DNA of 32,000 nucleotides from Opitutales bacterium (GTDB lineage Bacteria > Verrucomicrobiota > Verrucomicrobiia > Opitutales > UBA9783): positions 1-32,000 of the forward strand of contig JAKSVZ010000006.1 in NCBI GenBank assembly GCA_024407725.1, read 5' to 3'. Below, in pieces: positions 5,742 through 24,119 of the stretch. The first letter of the stretch is position 1. Each line of letters opens with the position of its first letter. The position numbers and the translations under genes are program-made. The notes beneath the pieces are model-generated. The model made no database searches, was not told where the DNA came from, and saw only the letters and a program-made list of their open reading frames with translations.

Positions 5742-5852
5742 AACATACCAATCAGCTTACCTAGGTATGCTCGTTCGCTAAGCTAACCCCCTAATCATCT
5801 CAATGCTTAGCGCCTTAATACTAAAATGCTCGTACGCATTCAAACTAAAAGA

Positions 5853-5881
5853 TTGACAGGTAGTCCGTCCTCTATTATAAT
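5853..5881 (+). promoter_or_regulatory. perfect-consensus sigma70-type promoter (TTGACA-17 nt-TATAAT) with no downstream ORF
   Basis: ttgaca at 5853-5858, an exact 17-nt spacer, and tataat at 5876-5881. The next gene (6027-7100) is on the opposite strand and converges on it. Confidence 0.5.
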
Positions 5882-5964
5882 CTTTTTGGATAGAAATTTC
5901 AGAGGACTAATAAGTTTATTATCTAAAATTATTTTTATTAGTCAATCTTAAAATACCTAAGAAA

Positions 5965-5987
5965 CGCGATCTAATGAGTATTTCGCG
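5965..5987. terminator. weak GC hairpin in the convergent gap; possible bidirectional terminator
   Basis: cgcga (5965-5969) pairs with tcgcg (5983-5987) across a 13-nt loop. On the plus strand ctcttttg lies a few nt downstream. On the minus strand tttctt follows. The stem is short, so this is weak. Confidence 0.3.
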
Positions 5988-6026
5988 AACCTCTTTTGAT
6001 TAAACAGCCCCTAAAAAAACAATCGT

Positions 6027-7394: not shown

Positions 7395-7520
7395 GAATAA
7401 TCTTTTCTAAAAAATTTTTGTTTCATTTCCCCAAACTATCCCACCCTTGTCAAGAGTGTTTTGCAAACAAGAAAAATTTAATAGCGTTTTATTTCGAAAG
7501 GTTTTTTGACTAAAAACATT

Positions 7521-10500
7521 TTATTTAAGTGCGGTTTTTATTAAACCGAAAAACTTATCAAAAAACTCTTTCAAACGTTTCCAAATGGCGTCTTGTCGCG
7601 CAAAATTGCCCCTATCTTTTAAGCTTTGGAGGTCTGCTGGTAAACAATTTATAAATCCGCTGCCTTCGCGGCTTAAATCTTCTTCTCGTTCGAAGGCATT
7701 TTCTACAAATGCTTTTGTTTTTTCAGGGTCTAAGCGCGCTTCTCGGATGATGGTACTCAATGCTTTTTCTTTTTGCTCACGAACGAAAGATGGCCATTTT
7801 TGAGAAGATTTCTTAAGCTTTATAAACTCTAAGATAAGGTCTTTCTTATTGCGAAGGAAGGGGGTGGAATCGATCATACGATTGATATGGTCAGTGAATT
7901 CGGGTTCATTTTTTGATGCACGCTGTTGATCGTTGAGGGCAAGGATATAGTCGATATCGACAGCAAATTCTTGCACCAATTCCATTGAAAAGAGCACATC
8001 TTCTTTAATACTTTCAGCATTTTCCTTGCGTTCCTGTTGAAATTGCTGATAGAGGGTAATGTAAAGCGATGTGTAATCTTGGCGTTCCCCCTCGGTGAGG
8101 CGCTTTTCTTCTGTAAATTCATCGAAAGTTATTAAAAAACTGTGTGTTTTTAAGAATGTATTGAAAAGTTCGATAAATTCTTTTTGTTTTTGTTCACCCA
8201 CAATGTCCTGTTTGGGTGAAAATGCTCTCAATTTTTGGATGATTTCTTGGTAACCCAAATGATGGCCGGTTTCATCCTCATACCCTTCGTAATAATCCTT
8301 AAACGATCGCATGAGCACAAAGCGTTCTGTGTCTGCATTACCGAACAACCGAAGGGCGTTGGATAAATCGTTGTTTAAATCGCGGAAGCATACAATATTG
8401 CCTGCTTGTTTGTGCTCATTTAAAATGCGGTTTGTGCGTGAAAACGCTTGAATAAGGCCATGATACACAAGCGGTCGATCTACAAAAAGGGTATTTAACC
8501 GTGGGGCATCGAAGCCGGTTAAGAAGATGTTTACAACAAGCGTTAAATCGACTTCCCCATTCTTAATTCTTCGAGCAAGATCGGTGCGATACCCATCACA
8601 ATCGGAAATAGCGTACTGGGTATTAAAAGTACGGTTGTAATCCTGAATGGCTGTTTCGAGTGCTTCACGCGCAGAAGGTTCCATGCGTTCTGCTTGAAAC
8701 TCACTGCCATTGTCCTGATCAGGGTCTTCATTCGCAGGGTAGGTAAAGATGGTTGCAAGTTTCAATGAGCTTTTGGCTGTTTGCAATTGGTTTTTAAACT
8801 CTTTGTAATAAAGGCGCGCGGAGGTGATAGAATCAACAGCGAAAAGTGCGTTAAACCCGCGCGCCTTTTCTTGTTTTCCATTCGAGTTTGAAACGGTATA
8901 AGTTTTATCCCGCTTGGTTTTATCTTCAAAGACCTCTAAGATCTTTTGTACGACGTTCTTAATCCGTTCGGGTGCCTGATACGCCTCTTCGCGATTGATA
9001 GCTCTAACGCGTTTATCTTTAATCGCCTCCTTGGGTGCAAAGGTTTGATATTGCTGGAACAAGAACTTTAGGACGCTTTGATCGCGAATAGCGTCTACAA
9101 TCGTATACGTGTGCAAACAAGAACCAAAAACCTGTTCGGTTGTTATCATTCCCTTAAAGGCATTTTCTTTAAAAATAGGGGTTCCGGTAAAACCAAAGCA
9201 GATATGGTCTTTAAAGCGATCCAGGATACCCCGATGCAGCTCGCCAAATTGGGAGCGGTGGCATTCGTCGAAGATAAAAACAACCCGTTTTGAGTAAGCA
9301 GAATGTGTTTTGTATCTTTTAATCAAGAGCCCCAATTTTTGAATCGTCGTAACGACGATTTTCGTGCTTTTATCTTCGAGGTGTTGATTTAAAACGTCGG
9401 TTGAAACGCTCCCTGCGACGCAGTTTTTTTTAAACTTATTGTATTCTGCTACTGTTTGAGCATCGAGATCCTTGCGATCGACAACAAACAGCACTTTATC
9501 AATACTGGGCAAATCTTTCGCGAGCTGCGCCGTTTTAAACGACGTCAATGTTTTTCCGCTGCCGGTTGTGTGCCAAATATACCCACCTGCTTTTTTCGTT
9601 CCGATGGTTTTACAGCTGGTTGCCATGCAAATGCGCTGCAGGATTTTTTCACATGCTGCAATTTGATAAGGGCGCAGGATTTTCAAATCCTGAGTGGTAT
9701 CAAAAACGCAGTACCGAAGTAGCAGGTTCAACAACGTATTGCGGTTAAAAAATGTTTGCGTGAAATCTTCTAAATCATGAATGGGGTGATTTTTTTGATC
9801 GGCCCAATGAAAGGTAAATTCAAAACTTTTGCGCGTGCGGGTTGGCGATGCTTGATCGTATTTTATTTTGCCCAGACGCAAGGTGTTGGAATAATACCGC
9901 GTGCGCGTTCCATTGGAGATTACAAACAATTGCACCCAATTGAAAAGTCCATCGCCGCTCCAAAAACTGGTGTCTTGATAACGTTTGATTTGGTTGAACG
10001 CTTCGTGAAGGCTATCTTCTCCCCCTTTCCCACGGCGCTTTAACTCGATGTGCACCACGGGTAATCCATTGAGTAAAATCGTCACATCGTAACGTGATTT
10101 GCGCCCTTCATGTTCCTCTTCGTACTGATGCAATACTTGCAGGATATTTTCATTAATGTACTTTTTATCAACCAGCTTGAGATTGCGAAAGAGTTTACCC
10201 TTGCGCTTTAATGCCCATTCTGGGTTTTGTTGAAAACGCTCTGTTTTTTCAACTACCCCTTCTCGCTTGTTGGCTAAAACTTCTGAGTAAAATTTTTCCC
10301 ATTCGCTATCCGTAAAATGAAAACCTTCCGGTCCATCTTCTTTGTGCGTGTTGAGTCGCTCCATTTGCTTCCGAAGGTTCGCTTTCAAACCGTCTTCGTT
10401 GTGTACCTTCAAGAACTCATACCCTAGATCTTTTAAAGCTTGAATAAAGGTGGCTTCCAATTCCGCTTCGCTTTGATAGGCCGTGTCCGTTCGCGGTTTC

Positions 10501-10595
10501 GGCTCAAAAGACGCTAGCACAGTCCAAGAGAAAGGCTTTTCTGAAGCAACCAAACCGTCATCCAAAGGTGTTTTTTCCAAAACGTGTTTTAACAT
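7521..10595 (-). CDS. hsdR: type I restriction enzyme, R (endonuclease/translocase) subunit
   Basis: The 1024-aa ORF is intact. It has the SF2 helicase motifs HTTGSGKT and DECHRSQ, then TGTPIF, and a nuclease-type N-terminal region. It lies directly downstream of hsdS. Confidence 0.92.
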   Translation of the reverse strand: MLKHVLEKTPLDDGLVASEKPFSWTVLASFEPKPRTDTAYQSEAELEATFIQALKDLGYEFLKVHNEDGLKANLRKQMERLNTHKEDGPEGFHFTDSEWEKFYSEVLANKREGVVEKTERFQQNPEWALKRKGKLFRNLKLVDKKYINENILQVLHQYEEEHEGRKSRYDVTILLNGLPVVHIELKRRGKGGEDSLHEAFNQIKRYQDTSFWSGDGLFNWVQLFVISNGTRTRYYSNTLRLGKIKYDQASPTRTRKSFEFTFHWADQKNHPIHDLEDFTQTFFNRNTLLNLLLRYCVFDTTQDLKILRPYQIAACEKILQRICMATSCKTIGTKKAGGYIWHTTGSGKTLTSFKTAQLAKDLPSIDKVLFVVDRKDLDAQTVAEYNKFKKNCVAGSVSTDVLNQHLEDKSTKIVVTTIQKLGLLIKRYKTHSAYSKRVVFIFDECHRSQFGELHRGILDRFKDHICFGFTGTPIFKENAFKGMITTEQVFGSCLHTYTIVDAIRDQSVLKFLFQQYQTFAPKEAIKDKRVRAINREEAYQAPERIKNVVQKILEVFEDKTKRDKTYTVSNSNGKQEKARGFNALFAVDSITSARLYYKEFKNQLQTAKSSLKLATIFTYPANEDPDQDNGSEFQAERMEPSAREALETAIQDYNRTFNTQYAISDCDGYRTDLARRIKNGEVDLTLVVNIFLTGFDAPRLNTLFVDRPLVYHGLIQAFSRTNRILNEHKQAGNIVCFRDLNNDLSNALRLFGNADTERFVLMRSFKDYYEGYEDETGHHLGYQEIIQKLRAFSPKQDIVGEQKQKEFIELFNTFLKTHSFLITFDEFTEEKRLTEGERQDYTSLYITLYQQFQQERKENAESIKEDVLFSMELVQEFAVDIDYILALNDQQRASKNEPEFTDHINRMIDSTPFLRNKKDLILEFIKLKKSSQKWPSFVREQKEKALSTIIREARLDPEKTKAFVENAFEREEDLSREGSGFINCLPADLQSLKDRGNFARQDAIWKRLKEFFDKFFGLIKTALK

Positions 10596-10718
10596 ACTGA
10601 TTTACTTGGGTTTTTCAAAAGATAACAATTGATCGCGATAGTAGGCGTACTGCTTTTTACGCCCCTCAATTTCCGCCGGAAGACCATCAATAAGGTCGTT
10701 GCAAAGCGCATCAAAACG

Positions 10719-10770
10719 ATCTAGAATACGCACAATGCGCGCTTGTTCGGAAAGAGGCGGGAGAGGGATG
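10719..10770 (-). repeat. hsdS conserved-region direct repeat, copy 1 (partner at 11303-11354)
   Basis: Two exact 18-mers, atctagaatacgcacaat and agaggcgggagagggatg, occur in both copies with the same 34-nt offset. The copies are 584 bp apart in the same orientation. Confidence 0.85.
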
Positions 10771-11269
10771 CGAATGGAAGCAAATTTACTTTTTGACAAT
10801 CCAAAACGTGTTAGACCTGTTGCTAGCTGATAAATCTGTTTTTGTACATCCGAACTCTCGAAGAGGTAACACAAATAAAATGCTGTTGTAAGATTCTTTT
10901 CGTTTAAACGAAAACGCATAAGGTGATAGCTGTAACAAGCATTTTTTATCGTTTCAATTGCAACTGCTGCGTGCCCAATATCATCACGCGTTTCTGAAGT
11001 CGGTGTGATAAACAAATCACCTGCCTCAACCGTACAAGCTGCAATTTTTCGTTCGGATGCTGTTACCATCATCTTTGGAATAGATACATCTAGCCTTTTA
11101 TGACGATATACATCCATATAATTAAACAGTATCACTGCTTTTTCGTTAGCTCTTATTTTTTTATCTACTCCAATGCTTGAAAAAATACCAAGCTCCCCCA
11201 ACCTTACCCGTGGGCATTCCCGCCAAAGGTCAGGAGTTTATCGCGGTAATACGCAAACTGTGCGCGCCT

Positions 11270-11293
11270 CTGTGTAAGCTCCTGTGTAAGCTC
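11270..11293 (-). repeat. perfect 12-bp x2 tandem repeat in the hsdS central conserved region (encodes ELTQ-ELTQ)
   Basis: On the plus strand, ctgtgtaagctc at 11270-11281 is repeated exactly at 11282-11293. The minus strand reads GAGCTTACACAG twice. Confidence 0.85.
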
Positions 11294-11302
11294 CGTAAAA
11301 GT

Positions 11303-11354
11303 ATCTAGAATACGCACAATCTCCTCTTGAATCGGCAGAGGCGGGAGAGGGATG
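11303..11354 (-). repeat. hsdS conserved-region direct repeat, copy 2
   Basis: See the copy at 10719-10770. It has the same two 18-mers with the same spacing. Confidence 0.85.
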
Positions 11355-11789
11355 GGAATACCATCTACATCTGTTTTATTAATGGCAGTGATACTTCCAT
11401 GCGCAACAAACGTATCCATCATATGCTGCTCTTGCGTTTTCAGGTAATAAAAAACGAATTTTGTTAAAAGCTCATTATCGCTCCTAGAACGATACGGATA
11501 ACACAAACCCCCTGCCCAGAAAGGTTCTGCTATAAAACTTACAAAGCCTGCATTCCCACGCGCAGCAATACAAAACGCATTACCTTCGTTGTTGTAATGT
11601 CCGTAATAACCGTAAAATTCACGGCTAGAATTTACCACAGGATAAGGGTATCGTTCATTTCGTTCTGCTGAAACTTCATGCTGTTTTAACGTTTCTTTCT
11701 TCAGAGATACGCACACCTCACCCAATGCCCTCCACTCCACACCGTTCGGACAATACATCCGCAATAGTTGTTGCAAGGGATGCATGGGA

Positions 11790-13372
11790 TTAGTTTCCGC
11801 CTTCTAGCTCGGCTATAATTGCATCAATTTTTTCGCGCAATGCCGTCTCTTTTTTAACTATTTCCGCCAGCTGGTTATTGAGCACACGAATATCCACCTT
11901 TTCACGCGTATCGGGTTTTTCTACATAGGACGAAACTGACAAGTTAAAATCCTTCGCTTCAATCTCTTCAGGGGATACCAAGCGAGACTTATGGGGTTGA
12001 TCTGTATGCTCCCGATACAAGTTCAAAATCGTTTGGATGTTTTCCGGCGCTAATTTATTGCTGTTGGTTACTTTGACACATTCGCTGCTCGCATCGATAA
12101 ATTGCACGCGATTTTCATTGCCCTTATGCTTTCGTAAAATCAAGATGCAGGTTGCAATCGACGTCCCATAAAACAGATTGGAAGGCAGTTGAATGACCGC
12201 ATCGATAGCATTGATGCGCAACAAATACGACCGAATGATCTTTTCGGCGCCCCCGCGGTAAAAAATCCCAGGGAAACAAACAATCGCGGCTGTTCCGGTT
12301 TGTTTTAAATAATAAAGCGCATGCAAAATAAACGCGAAATCCGCATTGCTCTTTGGTGCTAATGCACCAGCAGCCGAAAACGCTCATCTGCCTGTAAGGT
12401 TGGGTCGTCTTTTCCAGCCCATTTGATCGAATAGGGTGGATTTGAAACAACCGCATCGAAGCGAAGCTCCTGCTCGTCTTCGGAACAGGTACTAAATCCC
12501 CCATACTGTTTTTTGAGGAAAGCGTGCCCATCGGTCAAGGTATCCCCATGGTAAATTTGGAATTTATCATAGCCGATTCCATGAAGAAGAAGGTTGATAC
12601 GACACAGATTGTACGTGGTTAAATTGAGCTCTTGTCCGTAGTACTCCACATAAGGATCTTGGATAAACTTCTTAAATTTCAACAACAAAGAACCGCTTCC
12701 GCAGGCTGGATCGTAAACATTTTTAATGGTCTTCGTATGTACTTGTGTGCATTGAACAAGCAGCTCAGATACTTCCGGCGGCGTGTAATATTCACCCCCG
12801 CTTTTCCCAGCGTTCGAAGCATACATTCCCATTAAATACTCATAGACATCCCCAAAAAGATCAATGGTGGTTTGCCCTGCTTCCAATTGCATATCCGCTA
12901 CTGCTTGCATCACTTTTAGTAGCTTTGCCTTGCACTCTTTTGGATTATTCCCCAAATGCTTGCTGCTAACATCGATGCTATCAAATAAGTTTTTGAAGTT
13001 TTCTTTACACGATTCATCGAATGCATTAAAAATGGTTTGCAGCGTTTCAGCTAAATCATCAATCGATCCTTCGTGCGCTTGCTTCAACACATTCTTAAAT
13101 AGATGTTCCGCAGGAATAAAATATCCCTGAACTTCCATAATGCGTTGACGCGTTTCTTCATCCACCGCCTGGGTTCCCTGAGACCAACCTTCCAGCGCCC
13201 TATCATGCTCTATGTAATACGTTAAACGTTCTGAAAGATACCGGTAAAAAAGCATCCCTAACACATCCTGCTTGAAATCCCAACCATCAACACTACACCG
13301 CCAGTCATTTGCGATAGACCAAATAGTACGGTATAATTCTTCCCGTTCTGATTCGCGATTTGTATTCGTCAT
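11790..13372 (-). pseudogene. hsdM: type I R-M N6-adenine DNA methyltransferase HsdM, interrupted by one frameshift
   Basis: The N-terminal ORF (13372-12359) has the HsdM N-domain (DWRCSVDGWDFKQDVLGMLFYRYLSE), motif I DPACGSGSLL and motif IV VVSNPPYS. It ends ...ADERFRLLVH*. A shifted frame continues [51 protein letters not shown]..., which is the canonical continuation, through to 11790. Confidence 0.85.
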
Positions 13373-13381
13373 AACAGCGTT

Positions 13382-13409
13382 ATATTACAAATATAAAAGC
13401 CGTTGTCGA
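13382..13409 (-). promoter_or_regulatory. candidate hsdM promoter (TCGACA-16-TAATAT), which would give a near-leaderless mRNA
   Basis: The minus strand reads tcgaca (13409-13404), a 16-nt spacer, then taatat (13387-13382). The -10 ends 9 nt before the hsdM ATG at 13372. Confidence 0.25.
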
Positions 13410-13426
13410 TTCATTTAAAGCTATTT

Positions 13427-14338
13427 TTACGCGCGCGTATGATAACGGTCGTAGGTTTCGCGCAACTGCGTTGGGTTGAGGTGCGTATAAATTTGCGTGG
13501 TAGAAATATTGCTATGCCCCAGCATCGCCTGAATACTGCGTAAATCCGCGCCATTACACAGCAAATGCGTTGCAAAGGTATGGCGCAACTCATGGGGTTT
13601 GACGGAATGACCTAAGCCGACCGCCTGCCCATAAGCTTTGAGATAGCACCAAAGGGTTTTGCGGGAAATGGGCGTACCGCGTTGGGTCAAAAACACAAAA
13701 TTACCGCTTTTGGGGCGCAACAATTTCGGGCGTCCATGAACCAAATAATACTGCAAATGCTCTTTCGCAACTGACCCCAACGGTACCCAACGCTCCTTGC
13801 TGCCTTTACCGTAAATTTTGAGCGCATCCTCCTCAAGGAACAGCGCCTGCAAGGTTAATCCGCAGACCTCCGAAATACGCAACCCACAGCCGTACATCAA
13901 GGAAATCATGGCGCGATTGCGCATCCCTTGAGGGCTTACCAAACTCATGCTTTTCTGCAAGGCTTCCACCTCATTGACTGACAAGGTTTGCGGCAAAGGA
14001 CGCGTGCATTTAGGAGCAACCGCCTGAGCCATTGGATTCGCTTTTAATTGCCCATTTTTAGACAAAAAGTTAAAAAAACGCCGCAAACAGGCCAATTTTC
14101 GTGCGCGCGAGGTTGGACTCATCGACAGTAACGCTTGCTGCCATTGGTCAATATGCTCTGGGGTGATACGCTCTACCGAAACGCCTGCGGTTAGCTCACA
14201 AAACTGCTGCAAATCATAACGGTAGGAAGCTTGTGTGTTGGCCGACAAACCACATTCAATCGCTAAATAACCCAAGAAGGATTCGATTAATGCGCTCCAT
14301 TGATCCTTACCAACGCATCGCTTTCGTTCCGTCACCAT
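13427..14338 (-). CDS. xerD: site-specific tyrosine recombinase XerD (XerC/D family)
   Basis: 303 aa. Contains ECGLSANTQASYRYDLQQF, GLRISEV, GKGSKERWVPLG, HELRHTFATHLLCNGADLRSIQAMLGHSNISTTQIYTHL and the catalytic Y. Confidence 0.8.
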   Translation of the reverse strand: MVTERKRCVGKDQWSALIESFLGYLAIECGLSANTQASYRYDLQQFCELTAGVSVERITPEHIDQWQQALLSMSPTSRARKLACLRRFFNFLSKNGQLKANPMAQAVAPKCTRPLPQTLSVNEVEALQKSMSLVSPQGMRNRAMISLMYGCGLRISEVCGLTLQALFLEEDALKIYGKGSKERWVPLGSVAKEHLQYYLVHGRPKLLRPKSGNFVFLTQRGTPISRKTLWCYLKAYGQAVGLGHSVKPHELRHTFATHLLCNGADLRSIQAMLGHSNISTTQIYTHLNPTQLRETYDRYHTRA

Positions 14339-20144: not shown

Positions 20145-21650
20145 TTAGGACAATTCTCGATTTCTTTGGATTTGGCGATTCAACCGGAACACCGAAATAA
20201 CCCACACGGTCGCACAGGTCAAAAACACCACAAACGCATAGATCGCAATGCTTTCGTAGGTTGCTTTAACACCCGATAAGGCACTTACCAAGGACAACAG
20301 AATAACCTGCAAGCCCGAACCAAAAGATTTTCCAAAGCGATAACCAAATACATCGGCAATTGCCTTACCCTTTACCTTGAGCTCATCATCCAAGGGGATA
20401 AACGCCATCTCTTTGCTCATATCGAAAAAGGACATTTTAAATCCTTTATCAAGCACCAACGTTATCAATCCAACATACACAATGGTCGTTTGAATCCCTG
20501 CCATCATTCCCACGCTCCCCGATAAGAACTGTTCACCCAAGAACGACAGAAATAAGCAAACTCCTCCCACTAACACAACCATAGGAGTTAGCATAGCCCC
20601 TACTCCCCATTGGAATCGCCGGAATATGTAGCCGGTAATGAGCACCACAACCATCGAAAGTACACCGTATATAAACGTGTACGCGCTCATAAAGGTATTG
20701 TAATCGTTGATGTTGGGATAAATAACCTTAACCGCATGCTTCCAGAAATTCTCCAAGATGTTATCGCAGACGCTGTAACAGAACACCAAGAAAATGAGCA
20801 AGCGAACATAATGCGAACGCACAACCACCTTTAAACTGTTCCAAAGACTACTTTTCTTTTTGTCTTTTACGTGAAATCCGGGCAATTCCGGCTTATTATA
20901 AAAGCGTTTGTCGGTCAAAACATGCCGATAAATCCAATGATAAATACACATCGACAAAACGCTGGTTACCGTCACCGATCCAATCAACCAATAAAGCGTT
21001 ATTTGCCAAGGATCCGCACAGGACACCTTTTCGCGGATATTTGAAGCGATAAAACCAACCCCTCCTGAAATCGTTACCGCTCCCTGCCCCAACAACAACA
21101 AAACCCCATAAATACGCTTTGCTTCCTGCAACTCCGTAATTTGGTTCATAAATTGCCAAAACGAAAGCGACAAAATAAACGTACTCCACAGCTCTGCAAA
21201 GATAAAGAACAGCGCATAAGGCCAAACCCCAATAATCGCAAACGCCAACCCACACGATGGGAATTGCGCTTGAAGCTGAGCAATGCTATCCGCCGATGGA
21301 CACACATAATGCTTGAGGGGGTACAAAACCAATACAAATACGACGAAAAAGCTAACAAACGACCCCAAAGTAGCATAGTATAAATGCTCGTTCTTCAAGC
21401 GATCGCTGATCTTGGTATACGCCAGCATGAATAAAATCGCTGCCGGCGGCACCAAAAATAATTTGATAAAGGCAATTGCTTCCGCCCCCACAGCCGTTAC
21501 CACCAAAGAATCCTTGATGTTTTTGAGGCAATAATGGTTAAAAAGCGAAAAGAATAAAATACAGGCTAAAGGAACGATTTTTTTGAGCTCATAAGCATGT
21601 ACAGGAAAAAAGATTCCCCTAAGCTTTGAAAACTGACCGGTCTCCTCCAC
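20145..21650 (-). CDS. nucleotide transporter, ATP/ADP translocase (NTT/TLC family)
   Basis: 501 aa and polytopic. The N-terminus FSKLRGIFFPVHAYELKKIVPLACILFFSLFNHYCLKNIKDSLVVTAVGAEAIAFIKLFLVPPAAILFMLAY closely parallels the N-terminus of chlamydial and rickettsial Npt/Tlc proteins. Confidence 0.9.
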   Translation of the reverse strand: MEETGQFSKLRGIFFPVHAYELKKIVPLACILFFSLFNHYCLKNIKDSLVVTAVGAEAIAFIKLFLVPPAAILFMLAYTKISDRLKNEHLYYATLGSFVSFFVVFVLVLYPLKHYVCPSADSIAQLQAQFPSCGLAFAIIGVWPYALFFIFAELWSTFILSLSFWQFMNQITELQEAKRIYGVLLLLGQGAVTISGGVGFIASNIREKVSCADPWQITLYWLIGSVTVTSVLSMCIYHWIYRHVLTDKRFYNKPELPGFHVKDKKKSSLWNSLKVVVRSHYVRLLIFLVFCYSVCDNILENFWKHAVKVIYPNINDYNTFMSAYTFIYGVLSMVVVLITGYIFRRFQWGVGAMLTPMVVLVGGVCLFLSFLGEQFLSGSVGMMAGIQTTIVYVGLITLVLDKGFKMSFFDMSKEMAFIPLDDELKVKGKAIADVFGYRFGKSFGSGLQVILLSLVSALSGVKATYESIAIYAFVVFLTCATVWVISVFRLNRQIQRNRELS

Positions 21651-21802
21651 GAGATTTATTATTAAGAACTATATTAAGTAGTAAAAATAATACCTCCGTC
21701 AATATATTTAACAATCGATGCTTCCCTATTGTTGGAGCATGGTTCTCGATAAATATACTACGCGCAACCCGCTTGAATACTTAAGAAAACCACACAAAAA
21801 GC

Positions 21803-21831
21803 TTGCCAAACCGCTTAGATTCGCTTATTAT
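21803..21831 (+). promoter_or_regulatory. promoter-like module P+1 (AAAGC-TTGCCA-17-TATTAT)
   Basis: ttgcca at 21803-21808, a 17-nt spacer, and tattat at 21826-21831. It is preceded by aaagc, forming the 11-mer aaagcttgcca shared with P+2. Confidence 0.35.
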
Positions 21832-21850
21832 AAAATATGTAAGCAGAAAA

Positions 21851-21894
21851 TCATGTTCGTTTCAGAAAATCTTCATATTCGTTTCAGAAAGTTT
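21851..21894 (+). repeat. 22-bp x2 tandem direct repeat
   Basis: tcatgttcgtttcagaaaatct (21851-21872) is followed by tcatattcgtttcagaaagttt (21873-21894). By eye 19 of 22 positions are identical. It starts about 13 nt downstream of the P+1 predicted transcription start. Confidence 0.8.
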
Positions 21895-22152
21895 TATTGA
21901 TTTCTCTCTAGAATCTTACGGTATGCATTGCAACCAAATGAAGAAAATAGACACACTTTATAGGGATTTTGGATCTAATGTTACTCTGTACAAAACGATA
22001 CAACCTAACTAAAATCCACCCCCAAAAATCTAATTGCTATCTTCAAAATGGGATTACATTAATTATAATATACAAATATTTTTGAGTCAAACAAATTTGA
22101 TACCAACGCTTAAACAACACCCTTATATAGCCCAACTTACAAATAATAAAGC

Positions 22153-22180
22153 TTGCCATGGAAACAAATATAGGTATAAT
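22153..22180 (+). promoter_or_regulatory. promoter-like module P+2 (AAAGC-TTGCCA-16-TATAAT)
   Basis: ttgcca at 22153-22158, a 16-nt spacer, and tataat at 22175-22180. It lies antisense within the 22043-22249 minus-strand ORF. Confidence 0.4.
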
Positions 22181-22352
22181 ATTTATGTCTATTACAGGCA
22201 ATTTGTTTAAATATACCTCATCCCAAAAAGACGAAAATAGAAGAACCATCTAATGTAATAAAATCTATACACCCTATAAGGTCTTGCTATCGCGTTTCAA
22301 TAGATAAAACCAAAAACTTTGCCAACCAGATTCAGGATCTTCTTCTAAAAGA

Positions 22353-22381
22353 AATTTAACCCAAAAAGCCTAGGACGTCAA
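22353..22381 (-). promoter_or_regulatory. promoter-like module P-1 (CCAGAATTGGC-TTGACG-17-TAAATT)
   Basis: The minus strand reads ttgacg (22381-22376), a 17-nt spacer, then taaatt (22358-22353). The -35 is embedded in the exact 16-mer gtcaagccaattctgg (22377-22392, plus strand). Confidence 0.4.
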
Positions 22382-22450
22382 GCCAATTCTGGTAGAGAAG
22401 CCGGATTTTACACAAAAATTCTTCTTATATCCATACTACACCTATAAAAT

Positions 22451-22470
22451 GCCCTTTAACCTAAAAGGGC
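22451..22470 (-). terminator. rho-independent-type terminator hairpin (minus strand)
   Basis: gcccttt (22451-22457) pairs with aaagggc (22464-22470) across a 6-nt loop. On the minus strand the hairpin is followed by ATTTTAT. It lies about 340-360 nt downstream of the P-2 predicted start. Confidence 0.5.
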
Positions 22471-22569
22471 AATGCGCGTTAACAACCGTTAAAGCTCTTT
22501 CACTATCGGTACTGCATTTTGCCAGCCCGATCTCTGCCACTCATTCAATCGATTAGCTAAATAAAAAGC

Positions 22570-22597
22570 TTGTCAATTTAAACGGTATATGGATAAT
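22570..22597 (+). promoter_or_regulatory. promoter-like module P+3 (AAAGC-TTGTCA-16-GATAAT)
   Basis: ttgtca at 22570-22575, a 16-nt spacer, and gataat at 22592-22597. It is preceded by aaagc, as in P+1 and P+2. Confidence 0.35.
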
Positions 22598-22814
22598 AAA
22601 AATGTTATTTTGGAAAATTTATTTTTAAATGATAAACAAGCCGTGCAAAGCATTTATCTTAAAAGTCGTTTTCTTCTAGATAATTGAAGTAGATACAAGG
22701 ATAATCTAATAGTACGTGATAGATGCACAATATATGGATTTATCATCTCGCTTCAGATTCCAGTAAGTTGAAAAAGCGCATTTTTCAAATCCTTCAATAA
22801 CAAAGAGCAGGCAT

Positions 22815-22843
22815 AATTAATCAAAAACCCCAGAGGATGTCAA
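22815..22843 (-). promoter_or_regulatory. promoter-like module P-2 (CCAGAATTGGC-TTGACA-17-TTAATT)
   Basis: The minus strand reads ttgaca (22843-22838), a 17-nt spacer, then ttaatt (22820-22815). It is embedded in the second exact copy of gtcaagccaattctgg (22839-22854). Confidence 0.4.
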
Positions 22844-22865
22844 GCCAATTCTGGAGCGATAAGAC

Positions 22866-22886
22866 GGTGTTTTCCTTGTAAACACC
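22866..22886 (-). terminator. hairpin just downstream of the sua5 stop; possible weak terminator
   Basis: ggtgttt (22866-22872) pairs with aaacacc (22880-22886) across a 7-nt loop. The minus-strand tail GTCTTAT is only weakly U-rich. Confidence 0.3.
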
Positions 22887-22907
22887 CAGCCACCATTCAA
22901 CTTTATT

Positions 22908-23899
22908 TCAGCTTAAATCCCGAACAGCAGCACGTGACAAGCGGTCATTAATCGCTTTCCCTATACCGGAATCTGGCGCCTTTTCCATCCAAATAGATTG
23001 CCACTGTTGGTTATCCAAGCGTTGCAAGCAATCAAACAATGAGGCAGCCACTTCCGACAAATCCCTCTTGGGACTCAAAACAAACTCATTGGACGCCAAA
23101 GGACGGCACGGTGGATATAAAAACACATGCGCAGCACCCACTTCAAAAGTCTTTTGGAGCTCAATCGGCGCCTGAAATTGCTCTAAATGGCGCACTAAAT
23201 ACAGCAGGGTTTTCGGGCTATAATGGCGTTTATAAAGTCCTGGAGACAAATGCACTCCATTAACGGGTACGGACGAAAGCGTTTGGATAGGACGCTCCAA
23301 AAACGCCTCCAATGCCTCTTGGGTGATGGGTCCTTGGCGCAACAAAGTAGGTTGTTCTTCCGATACCAAAGAAAGAATGGTTGATTCCAACCCAAAGGAA
23401 CACGGACCTCCATCGAGTATGTAGGCCACTACATCCCCCATTCCTTGCGCAACATGCTGAGCCGATGTAGGGCTAACCTGCTGAAAACGGTTAGCGCTCG
23501 GGGCCACCAAGGGTTCTCCCATTAACTCAATAACTGCTCGAAATAAAGAACCTGATGGGCAACGCACCGCCACTGACGGTTGACCTGCCGTTACGCAAGC
23601 TGGCACACAGGCTTTTTTTTTAACACCAAGGTCAATGGACCGGGCCAAAAATGCTTTACCAAACGCAACACCAAAGGGGTAACCTCAGCCACCAACCGTA
23701 ACTGTTCCACGCCTAATACGTGAACAATCAATGGATTTTCTTGAGGACGCTGCTTGAGCGTATAAATTTTCTTAATCGTATCAACCGCAGATAAAGGGGC
23801 GGCTAACCCATAAACGGTTTCGGTTGGCAATGCTACCGGTTCTCCTTTGGACAACCACGCAGCTGCTTCTTTAGGACTTACCCCAACCTGCGCCCGCAT
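22908..23899 (-). pseudogene. tsaC: threonylcarbamoyl-AMP synthase Sua5/TsaC (long form), split by a frameshift in an A9 tract
   Basis: The N-terminal ORF (23899-23591) reads ...ALPTETVYGLAAPL...KQRPQENPLIVHV...FWPGPLTLVLKKKPVCQLA*. The second frame continues ...KKKACVPACVTAGQPSVAVRCPS...PLVAPSANRFQQVSPTSAQHV...ILDGGPCSFGLESTIL plus a Sua5 C-domain. The frames switch at T9 on the plus strand (23613-23621). A10 would give one product of about 330 aa. Confidence 0.85.
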
Positions 23900-23906
23900 A
23901 AAAGGA

Positions 23907-24119
23907 TTACAGCAACGCTAACATATTACGAGCCCGTTTGATGAGCTTCGTAACATAACGCTGTTCCATAGCGCTTAAACGCGTAATACGACGCGGCAAA
24001 ATTCTACCTGATTCCGTCGTGTATCGCTTGAGCTGTTCCACATCCAACCACGTTAATTCCCATACGTTAACGCGTTCTTTTTTACTTTCAGTATTTTCTT
24101 CTTTACTCACAGTACTCAT
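23907..24119 (-). CDS. rpsR: 30S ribosomal protein S18
   Basis: 70 aa. LKRYTTESGRILPRRITRLSAMEQRYVTKLIKRARNMLALL matches the S18 core (GKIxPRRxTG...QR...AIKRAR..ALL). Confidence 0.75.
   Translation of the reverse strand: MSTVSKEENTESKKERVNVWELTWLDVEQLKRYTTESGRILPRRITRLSAMEQRYVTKLIKRARNMLALL

Follow-up and report, generated by a model that had tools for sequence, protein, structure and literature searches.

The island between sua5 and NTT in this Opitutales genome is best explained, at a probability of roughly 60%, as a lineage-specific expansion of an ancestral intergenic spacer of ~200 nt, which carries orphan promoters and has no conserved function. The lack of conserved function is concluded because the island is absent from relatives and the searches are negative. 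The host is a gut member of the Verrucomicrobiota and not a chlamydia, uncultured and represented by a metagenome-assembled genome (MAG), and the window is the whole stretch of 32,000 nt that was analysed. The whole spacer (21651..22907, unstranded) measures 1257 nt from the NTT start (21650) to the sua5 stop (22908), which agrees with the gap given by the sequence-only reading. Its G+C content is 32.9%, as against 44.8% in the remaining window. The 60-nt lines of the spacer have a median of 32% and a minimum of 20% G+C, and the 20-22% reported earlier is too low for the island as a whole. Roughly 900 nt of the island is unique sequence.

In five close strains (L002, L028, L029, L030, and L031), the sua5-NTT spacer is only ~190-210 nt long. 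These strains are 88-94% identical and comprise both a sister clade and an outgroup clade. Flank identity is 92-94% for L002 and L031 and 88-89% for L028 and L029, and the flank tree is ((window,(L002,L031)),(L028,L029)). More distant syntenic relatives have a gap of 135-391 nt, and in none of the relatives does a gene separate sua5 from NTT. The island is regarded as a gain because sister and outgroup both have a short, mutually alignable spacer, and this common spacer also rules out a deletion of the island in the relatives. By sequence comparison, the island is private to one strain among the compared genomes. The sequence-only reading had listed absence from relatives as evidence against its own view, and the five close strains and the distant syntenic relatives are all of the short-spacer type. 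Such absence alone is without power to exclude a strain-specific function.

BLASTN against L002 aligns the flanks at 93% identity, breaks at 22911 and resumes at 21702. Positions 21703-22910 are thus unaligned to L002 9793-9948, and profile or local alignment recovers short segments only. With an nhmmer profile of the relatives' spacers, realignment starts at 21723. The lineage-specific part is 21724..22907 (unstranded), which replaces ~150 nt of the close relatives. The NTT-proximal segment (21648..21723, minus strand) is conserved, matching the relatives' spacer profile at E = 7.9e-12 in nhmmer, and it contains the region of the start codon together with the likely NTT core promoter (TTGACG...).

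The minus strand of the island contains the exact 16-mer CCAGAATTGGCTTGAC at 22377-22392 and again at 22839-22854. The repeat extends to 20/21 positions and shows 75% identity over 40 nt. An exact repeat of 16 nt is found in 0 of 500 shuffles, with a shuffle maximum of 15, and the earlier claim that the 16-mer exceeds chance is upheld. The copy of this repeat family (R1) that lies next to sua5 is m2, previously P-2 (22815..22854, minus strand). It is the ancestral CCAGAATTGG segment in approximately its orthologous place, 53 nt past the sua5 stop compared with ~44 nt in L002. A single CCAGAATTGG is retained in all five close strains and in the distant syntenic relatives. The m2 region folds into an 8-bp hairpin (22827-22857), followed by UUUUUGAUU. 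This hairpin and U-run at the approximately orthologous position make m2 the probable, predicted sua5 terminator. The predicted structure has the attributes of an intrinsic terminator, which are a G+C-containing hairpin, a U-run, closeness to the stop codon, and orthology to the terminators of relatives. In the relatives, the sua5 terminator hairpin has CCAGAAUUGG at its top, and UUUAUUAC or UUUUAUUAC comes after it. A second hairpin lies directly past the sua5 stop (22866..22886, minus strand) and comprises 7 bp, GGUGUUU...AAACACC, without a U-run. The gene itself, the essential sua5/tsaC, has a conserved A9 frameshift.

The other copy, m1, previously P-1 (22353..22392, minus strand; TTGACG-17-TAAATT), is a direct repeat of m2, with 16/16 positions in its core. 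It aligns with the relatives' terminator region (nhmmer E = 0.009). Together with ~60-80 nt downstream (22310..22392, minus strand), it forms the island's best match to the ancestral spacer of L002 and L031. The local alignment score there is 18.5, whereas the null from 200 shuffles has its 95th percentile at 14.5 and does not exceed 18. Both copies had been taken for promoters. The m1 score is 9/12, and chance alone would give ~5.6 sites at that level; m2 (TTGACA-17-TTAATT) fails the -10 criteria of the scan. The AAAG extension of the native -35 is absent from both. Judged from these motifs, neither m1 nor m2 has a sigma-70-type promoter match above chance. The supposed minus-strand promoters are explained by their homology to the terminator segment, as duplicated copies of the ancestral piece that tops the sua5 terminator hairpin. 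A sigma-54 reading of TGGCAAGCTTT was rejected by eye only, as the -12 GC is absent from all copies.

An intrinsic-terminator-like hairpin also occurs at 22443..22471 on the minus strand, where 8 bp with 4 G-C pairs are followed by UUUUAUAGG. The minus-strand terminator described earlier is thereby confirmed and located at 22450-22471. The hairpin is preceded by TTAACGCGCA, which is present in the relatives' sua5 terminator too, and its likeness to the L002 spacer is marginal (score 16.0 vs a null 95th percentile of 14.5).

The plus strand contains three R2 modules of the form AAAGCTTGYCA-16/17 nt-TATTAT/TATAAT/GATAAT at 21803, 22153, and 22570, and these stand as first described, with scores of 10-11/12. 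Copy 1 (P+1; 21796..21841) consists of AAAAAGCTTGCCA, 17 nt, TATTAT, 5 nt, and ATGT. Copy 2 (P+2; 22141..22212) has AAAGCTTGCCA, 16 nt, TATAAT (11/12), 4 nt, and ATGT, and copy 3 (P+3; 22559..22630) has AAAGCTTGTCA, 16 nt, GATAAT, 4 nt, and ATGT. Copies 2 and 3 are homologous over ~75 nt (local alignment score 21.5, P = 0.01). Each copy has an ATG 4-5 nt after a near-consensus -10. The ATGs are 348 and 417 nt apart, both multiples of 3, and no gene lies downstream of any module.

Sites scoring at least 10/12 are enriched in the island, with 5 found and 0.98 +/- 0.98 expected from 500 dinucleotide shuffles (P = 0.002), and of all sites at this level across the 32-kb window, one half lies in the island. 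This composition-preserving control and the 16-mer repeat together bear out the claim that the island is non-random. The 11-mer repeat offered earlier as a further argument against chance is by itself not rare, as a three-copy 11-mer with at most one mismatch is present in 71% of shuffles.

The R2 modules are credible as predicted native sigma-70-type promoters because the same extended -35, AAAGnTTGnCA, precedes rpsR, nusA, and lptD. It sits 41-50 nt before these genes, is correctly oriented, and is conserved in L002, L028, L029, and L031; the nusA motif is present in L016 too. In the window, 7 of the 11 matches to AAAGnTTkbCr are intergenic, and intergenic DNA accounts for only ~12% of the window. 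In this Opitutales group, the native promoter form thus pairs AAAGnTTGnCA with leaders that are very short and lack a Shine-Dalgarno sequence. A search for small ORFs guided by Shine-Dalgarno sequences is uninformative here, because these are absent before the genes of this genome.

Two smaller features accompany the R2 modules. Just downstream of P+1 are two tandem 22-nt copies (21851..21894, plus strand; TCATrTTCGTTTCAGAAArTyT; family D4) with 86% identity, each of which contains the palindrome TTTCAGAAA. A back-to-back promoter-like pair (22042..22090, unstranded) shares one TATAAT/ATTATA core, with TTCAAA-16-TATAAT on the plus strand and TTGACT-17-TATAAT (11/12) on the minus strand.

The modules had been combined into two tandem convergent-promoter units, and this arrangement dissolves on alignment. 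Only short modules of 40-75 nt repeat. The intervening stretches of 420-620 nt are not similar to each other (semi-global P = 0.39), and their best local match is the promoter module itself. Neither tblastx nor nucleotide alignment of the putative units detects homology at the unit level, and the segments X1 and X2 of the island are mutually unrelated outside the R2 module.

An expansion of the old spacer would account for these features as follows. About 1.05 kb of AT-rich, non-coding DNA would have come in as two or more pieces, with the sua5 terminator on one side and the NTT core promoter on the other. The first would be a 462-nt segment between 21-nt direct repeats of the terminator-loop sequence CCAGAATTGGCTTGACRTCCT, and the second a segment of ~575 nt with only a few bases of microhomology at its ends. 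The two R1 copies would be the 21-nt repeats, and the sua5-adjacent copy most likely still serves as the sua5 terminator. The R2 modules are copies of a 45-75-nt unit that has the native promoter architecture, with an ATG where short-leader genes start. If these orphan promoters fire, they would yield untranslated RNAs that head for the sua5 3' end and are antisense to it. The minus-strand terminator at 22443-22471 would halt read-through ahead of NTT, which would go on using the conserved promoter at 21648-21723. Transcriptional noise, interference, or insulation is the most that would result. Even so, three same-strand native-type promoters and an exact 16-21-mer represent more order than is expected of pure junk.

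Searches of the island for coding, RNA, and mobile content are uniformly negative. The six-frame translations have 0 Pfam matches at E <= 10, and the concatenated six-frame query has none at E <= 1 among 5.8 billion proteins. A decayed protein gene, which the sequence-only reading had itself raised as a counter-explanation, is not supported, as no protein similarity appears in any of the six frames and relatives are geneless at this place. Rfam 15 gives 0 matches over the whole window at gathering thresholds. A permissive search of 21400-23100 gives only matches with E = 2.3-8.9, scoring far under gathering, one of which (SpF51) is the terminator hairpin; the Rfam check proposed for the island thus identifies no family. 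RNA structure z-scores in sliding windows are unremarkable (66 tests, -2.9 to +1.5), and a tRNA/tmRNA scan finds none. Comparison of the island with ~600 kb of related loci and with the remaining window returns chance matches only. A replication origin was also considered. The island has 1 DnaA box (with 1 mismatch), the window has 6 vs 7.6 expected, and the cumulative GC skew is monotonic across the island. The origin is rejected because there is no DnaA-box cluster and no skew switch, and because the island is absent from relatives.

The alternative that fares best, though still unlikely, is a decayed remnant of integrated or mobile DNA. The 462-nt segment would then be the leftover of an element integrated site-specifically into the sua5 terminator, with attL/attR-like repeats, and the promoter and ATG modules would be the 5' ends of small cassette genes since lost. 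The 21-nt direct repeats (20/21) bound exactly one insertion, and the site occurs once in relatives. A position at a housekeeping gene's 3' end and a lowered G+C are both typical of acquired DNA. From motif start to ATG, the R2 copies measure 37-39 nt, near the 41-50 nt of native start codons, and the spacings of their ATGs are multiples of 3. The gain of a 6-kb type I restriction-modification island by the same strain points in the same direction. However, the six frames contain no integrase, transposase, or protein remnant, and BLASTN against plasmid and phage collections gives no match to the island. Viral contigs yield 23 matches to the 16-mer, all by chance and in unrelated coding DNA, and 0 matches to the full plus-strand module pattern. 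A 21-mer scan of JGI metagenomes finds one contig, without further similarity. The island boundaries lack terminal inverted repeats, and nothing beyond microhomology bounds the second insertion. Had genes decayed after a gain younger than the ~7% flank divergence, their remnants should have stayed recognisable. A transposon, MITE, phage, or plasmid fragment is rejected on the missing boundary inverted repeats and the missing similarity to mobile elements. L041, the sole viral locus with two 16-mer matches, is an unrelated coding repeat. Inspection by eye finds no direct repeats at the boundaries of the 6-kb restriction-modification island.

Less probable is the view of the sequence-only reading, in which the island is a strain-specific small-RNA/antisense locus or a type I toxin-antitoxin-like locus. 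Its most concrete version involves a 68-aa ORF with a hydrophobic stretch (22043..22249, minus strand), with P+2 inside it on the opposite strand. The ORF would be transcribed from P-1 and repressed by the P+2 antisense RNA. A second RNA, ~360 nt long, would start at P-2, extend as far as the terminator at 22450-22471, and be opposed by P+3. The plus-strand promoters are credible and of native type, the minus-strand terminator is clean, and P+2 lies antisense to an ORF whose hydrophobic stretch reaches 11/15. A strain-specific spacer of 1.2 kb vs 0.3 kb also recalls the anatomy of zor-orz (PMC2887945), and a long spacer of this kind may also fit the look of some type I toxin-antitoxin loci.

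The 68-aa ORF is the only one in the island with a gene call, which comes solely from the Logan contig that covers the locus. It qualifies the earlier statement that the island has no credible ORF, but it is an orphan. A HMMER search of 1.84 billion representatives returns only the ORF itself, and among ~15 billion proteins it occurs on a single contig. By the authors' own estimate, the island's composition would give ~1-2.5 ORFs as long as this by chance. The published toxin criterion asks for a small ORF (16-70 aa) with a predicted transmembrane stretch, in which 10 or more out of 15 residues belong to I, V, L, F, C, M, and A (PMC2887945). Three of the 25 ORFs of 16-70 aa pass it, including the 68-aa ORF, and AT-rich DNA gives such peptides by chance. 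The C-terminus (...YLYIIINVIPF) has no polar/aromatic cluster, the ORF has no homologues in other genomes, and the 30-aa ORF of the second "unit" is not hydrophobic. No tandem homologous toxin ORFs are found, the best same-strand pair having BLOSUM62 local scores of 26-33 over 7-17 residues. On the minus strand, the supposed promoters score low (9/12 and below threshold), terminator homology accounts for them, and the putative units are not mutually homologous. The island falls short of the published search criteria for type I toxin-antitoxin loci (PMC2887945), and there is no Rfam, structure, or protein signal in support of a small-RNA or toxin-antitoxin locus.

It is similarly doubtful, and marginally more so, that the recently gained insert is a functional strain-specific module, either a new type I toxin-antitoxin-like pair, made of the 68-aa ORF and the native-type promoter antisense within it, or leaderless micro-ORF/proto-gene transcripts, which the ATG close behind the -10 of each R2 copy would allow. 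Either version could spread via a duplicated, portable promoter cassette of 45-75 nt. The same strain has a second AT-rich replaced spacer at about 5752-6025, which contains a perfect native-type promoter and shows no similarity to the island. If the functional-module explanation were true, this second spacer would point to a genome-wide process in the strain.

An assembly or binning artefact, such as a chimeric join in the MAG, is very improbable, even though the genome is a MAG and the island is known from one sample only: the independent Logan assembly of SRR17543914 has a 100% identical spacer sequence, with one 3200-nt contig (L056) at 100% identity through sua5, the island, and the NTT 5' end, conserved synteny continues beyond both flanks, and diverged copies of the local ancestral spacer are present inside the island.

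As an expanded spacer, the island is ordinary accessory intergenic DNA of one strain, and it illustrates that AT-rich insertions and duplicated regulatory pieces can mimic a small-RNA locus. Should the orphan promoters be active, it would be a small natural example of promoter duplication giving rise to new transcripts beside a nucleotide-transporter gene. Of greater use than the island are two by-products, the native promoter form and the A9 frameshift in sua5/tsaC.

Cis-mobilizable elements of streptococcal ICEs include gene-less remnants between att-type direct repeats. The island resembles them in its short segment with ~20-nt direct repeats at the 3' end of a housekeeping gene, and in the single site where the segment is absent. 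It differs in that no related element, integrase, or further repeat is found, and in that the second insertion has no repeats.

The ibs-sib, ldr-rdl, and zor-orz loci (PMC2887945) share with the island a long strain-specific spacer, facing promoter-like sites, a terminator, and a small ORF with a hydrophobic stretch that is overlapped by an antisense promoter. The zor-orz spacer measures 1.2 kb in E. coli O157:H7 vs 0.3 kb in K-12 (PMC2887945). There, homology extends over the full length of the repeats, which code for paralogous toxins that have a transmembrane helix and end in a polar C-terminus, whereas here 40-75-nt modules alone repeat, the ORFs are unrelated, and the single candidate is an orphan.

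The promoter islands of E. coli are AT-rich, horizontally acquired, and have little productive transcription (PMC3661553, PMC7054387). The present island is likewise AT-rich and lineage-specific; promoter-like sites are in excess on both of its strands, and it has no evident product. The E. coli islands are defined by PlatProm start-point density and by RNA polymerase and H-NS binding, whereas the present one is known from a motif scan and has a few discrete, repeated, near-consensus promoters instead of a continuous smear.

Conserved gene pairs that have non-homologous, "switched" intergenic regions between them have been described (Piggy, PMC5890482; PMC5019451). The present locus has the same flanking pair and no significant BLASTN match between the spacers, as such regions do. 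Two non-homologous sequences occupy the sua5/NTT locus in strains that are ~93% identical elsewhere, and the region lies upstream of a gene and differs in promoter content. In contrast to a plain switch, the change here is mainly an expansion (1257 vs ~200 nt), in which the gene-proximal 76 nt are kept and pieces of the old spacer are re-used.

The NTT gene (a TLC-type ATP/ADP transporter; 20145-21650, minus strand) starts 1257 nt from the sua5 stop (22908, minus strand). The G+C content of this island (21651-22907) is 32.9%, against 44.8% in the remaining window. Its 60-nt lines have a median of 32% and a minimum of 20%, and the 20-22% given by the sequence-only reading is thus too low. Strain UBA3869 (L002; 92-94% DNA identity to the window) aligns at 93% as far as the sua5 stop (22911) and picks up again at 21702, with 1208 nt of the window against just 156 nt of L002 between the breaks. 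The spacer is also ~190-210 nt long in the close strains L028, L029, L030 (Logan and ENA assemblies) and L031, which were found via the NTT protein cluster. The sua5-NTT gap is 135-391 nt in more distant relatives keeping that neighbourhood, and the upstream gap of all other NTT orthologues is 52-571 nt. Flanking-gene identity gives the tree ((window,(L002,L031)),(L028,L029)). The short, mutually alignable spacer is common to the sister clade and the outgroup, which on comparative grounds makes the island a gain in the window's lineage and rules out its loss in relatives. We put at roughly 0.6 the probability that it is a lineage-specific expanded or "switched" intergenic region, made of imported AT-rich DNA and duplicated local regulatory pieces.

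A profile of the relatives' spacers matches two parts of the island, 21648-21723 (E = 8e-12) and 22361-22393 (E = 0.009). The first comprises the last 76 nt next to NTT and contains TTGACG and a start region, and is therefore the probable NTT core promoter. In the relatives, CCAGAATTGGTTTArCG lies ~44 nt past the sua5 stop and forms the tip of the predicted sua5 terminator, a hairpin with a U-run behind it. The repeat copy m2 (22815-22854, minus strand) has a similar position, 53 nt past the sua5 stop, and folds as a hairpin with an 8-bp stem (22827-22857) ahead of UUUUUGAUU. The copy m1 (22353-22392, minus strand), together with ~60-80 nt downstream, is the part of the island that aligns best locally to the ancestral spacer, with a score of 18.5 where the null has its 95th percentile at 14.5 and its maximum at 18. 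These likenesses identify the two supposed minus-strand promoters as copies of the old terminator segment. As promoters they are weak, since one scores 9/12 (~5.6 such sites are expected by chance) and the other fails the -10 rule. Both contain the 16-mer CCAGAATTGGCTTGAC, whose two minus-strand copies lie 462 nt apart and can be extended to 20/21 matches, then to 40 nt at 75% identity. The minus-strand hairpin and T-run described earlier are present at 22450-22471; TTAACGCGCA just before them also occurs in the relatives' terminator, a marginal similarity.

A 462-nt insertion is bounded by the copies m1 and m2. In our reading, another one of ~575 nt would extend from 22310 to about 21735 and have no more than a few bases of microhomology at its ends. 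The island is unlikely to be what remains of an integrated element, in which the 21-nt repeats would be the att-like ends. Phage and plasmid records contain no match to it, and viral and metagenome k-mer scans gave chance matches only.

The three plus-strand modules are found at 21803, 22153 and 22570 and score 10-11/12 in a consensus scan. The island is partly non-random, with five promoter-like sites of at least 10/12 against 0.98 +/- 0.98 expected (500 dinucleotide shuffles; P = 0.002), and half of the ten such sites in the 32-kb window. An exact 16-nt repeat was attained in none of the 500 shuffles, whereas an 11-mer in three copies with one mismatch was found in 71% and is unremarkable alone. 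Copies 2 and 3 are alike over ~75 nt (local score 21.5, P = 0.01), and the stretches between modules are otherwise unrelated (semi-global P = 0.39). Repetition is thus limited to short modules, and the proposed duplicated unit of facing promoters falls away. The motif AAAGnTTkbCr occurs 11 times in the window, seven times in intergenic DNA, which makes up only ~12% of the window. Outside the island there are four intergenic matches, and three of these precede rpsR, nusA and lptD, correctly oriented and 41-50 nt from the start codon. AAAGnTTGnCA appears to be the native promoter form of this Opitutales group; these sites, 20110 (-), 24168 (-) and 24281 (+), are kept in L002, L028, L029 and L031, and the nusA site also in the relative L016. 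Such distances imply leaders of only ~5-10 nt, and the genes of the window all lack a Shine-Dalgarno sequence. In the island, an ATG stands 4-5 nt past the -10 box of every module, at the expected gene-start position. The codons after it differ from module to module, giving a stop codon, a frame of 8 codons or one of 22 codons, with no resemblance among them. The plus-strand modules plausibly are real promoters of this organism, with predicted activity; this part of the sequence-only interpretation stands, and the remainder is unsupported. Directly downstream of the first plus-strand module are two tandem 22-nt copies (21851-21894), each with the palindrome TTTCAGAAA, an operator-like layout carried by one genome only.

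A small-RNA or toxin-antitoxin locus, the earlier view, is more doubtful still than an integrated element. In its favour, the second plus-strand module lies within a 68-aa ORF on the opposite strand, and the zor-orz spacer likewise differs between E. coli strains (1.2 kb in one, 0.3 kb in another; PMC2887945). The type I search criteria of that study, however, revealed no clear defining feature: among 25 ORFs of 16-70 aa, three have a hydrophobic stretch, no two are related, and the C-terminus of the 68-aa ORF is not polar. The absence of the island from close strains, with their ~190-210-nt spacers, also counts against that view by its own terms. Rfam gave no match over the island at gathering thresholds (noise only, E >= 2), the scan found no tRNA or tmRNA genes, and sliding-window folding z-scores of -2.9 to +1.5 (66 tests) are unremarkable. 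Pfam had no match in any of the six frames, nor did any of 5.8 billion proteins match the concatenated six-frame translation at E <= 1, so a decayed protein gene, proposed as a refutation, is not supported, very short or very old remnants aside. The 68-aa ORF (22043-22249, minus strand) is the sole one accepted by a gene caller, in the Logan contig; it occurs in a single contig among ~15 billion proteins, and none of 1.84 billion representatives is homologous to it. An assembly artefact is hardly credible because that contig, independently assembled from SRR17543914, is 100% identical across 20842-24041.

The flanking sua5/tsaC gene is split into 102-aa and 246-aa ORFs by a frameshift (23591-23660, minus strand) in an A9 run (~23606-23620; GTG TTA AAA AAA AAG CCT). 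Run and split recur in 5/5 close strains (88-94% identity; L002 at ~9070-9090, and L028-L031). The heptamer A_AAA_AAG, like the dnaX -1 slippery site, is in phase, and reading on in the -1 frame matches exactly what follows in the intact orthologues of L016 and L017. The gene thus looks less like a dead one than like a case of programmed -1 frameshifting or transcriptional slippage (reviewed in PMC5009743). The NTT had been taken to point to chlamydia-like bacteria, but the host is an Opitutales (Verrucomicrobiota) metagenome-assembled genome. Its translocase relatives, many at 53-68% identity (loci L002-L019, L024, L025), belong to Opitutales and Puniceicoccales MAGs, not Chlamydiae, with record names indicating human (Hadza), rumen and other host-associated samples. 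Such a distribution suggests that this group of Verrucomicrobiota lives by energy parasitism, possibly in association with protists.

A second AT-rich spacer (5752-6025; G+C about 0.36) lies between convergent genes, its 274 nt taking the place of 71 nt in L002. On its plus strand, at 5848, is a perfect, AAAG-extended TTGACA-17-TATAAT, and two more sites score 10/12 or higher on the minus strand. Its sequence does not resemble that of the main island, and it may be a small-RNA gene or one more orphan promoter. In L002, 26 nt stand in place of a 6-kb type I restriction-modification island (7468-13425) of the window. This island comprises hsdR (7521-10595), two half-size hsdS (10602-11201 and 11204-11785) and an hsdM split into two ORFs (11790-12326 and 12359-13372), and adjoins a Xer-type tyrosine recombinase gene (13427-14338).

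In the favoured reading of an expanded intergenic region, AT-rich DNA from an outside source would have been joined with duplicated local regulatory pieces. The three orphan promoters would fire towards sua5, m2 would still terminate sua5 transcription, and NTT would retain its own conserved promoter. The island would then belong to the "switched" intergenic regions already described (PMC5890482), and is similar in character to the promoter-dense, horizontally acquired stretches of E. coli (PMC3661553, PMC7054387).
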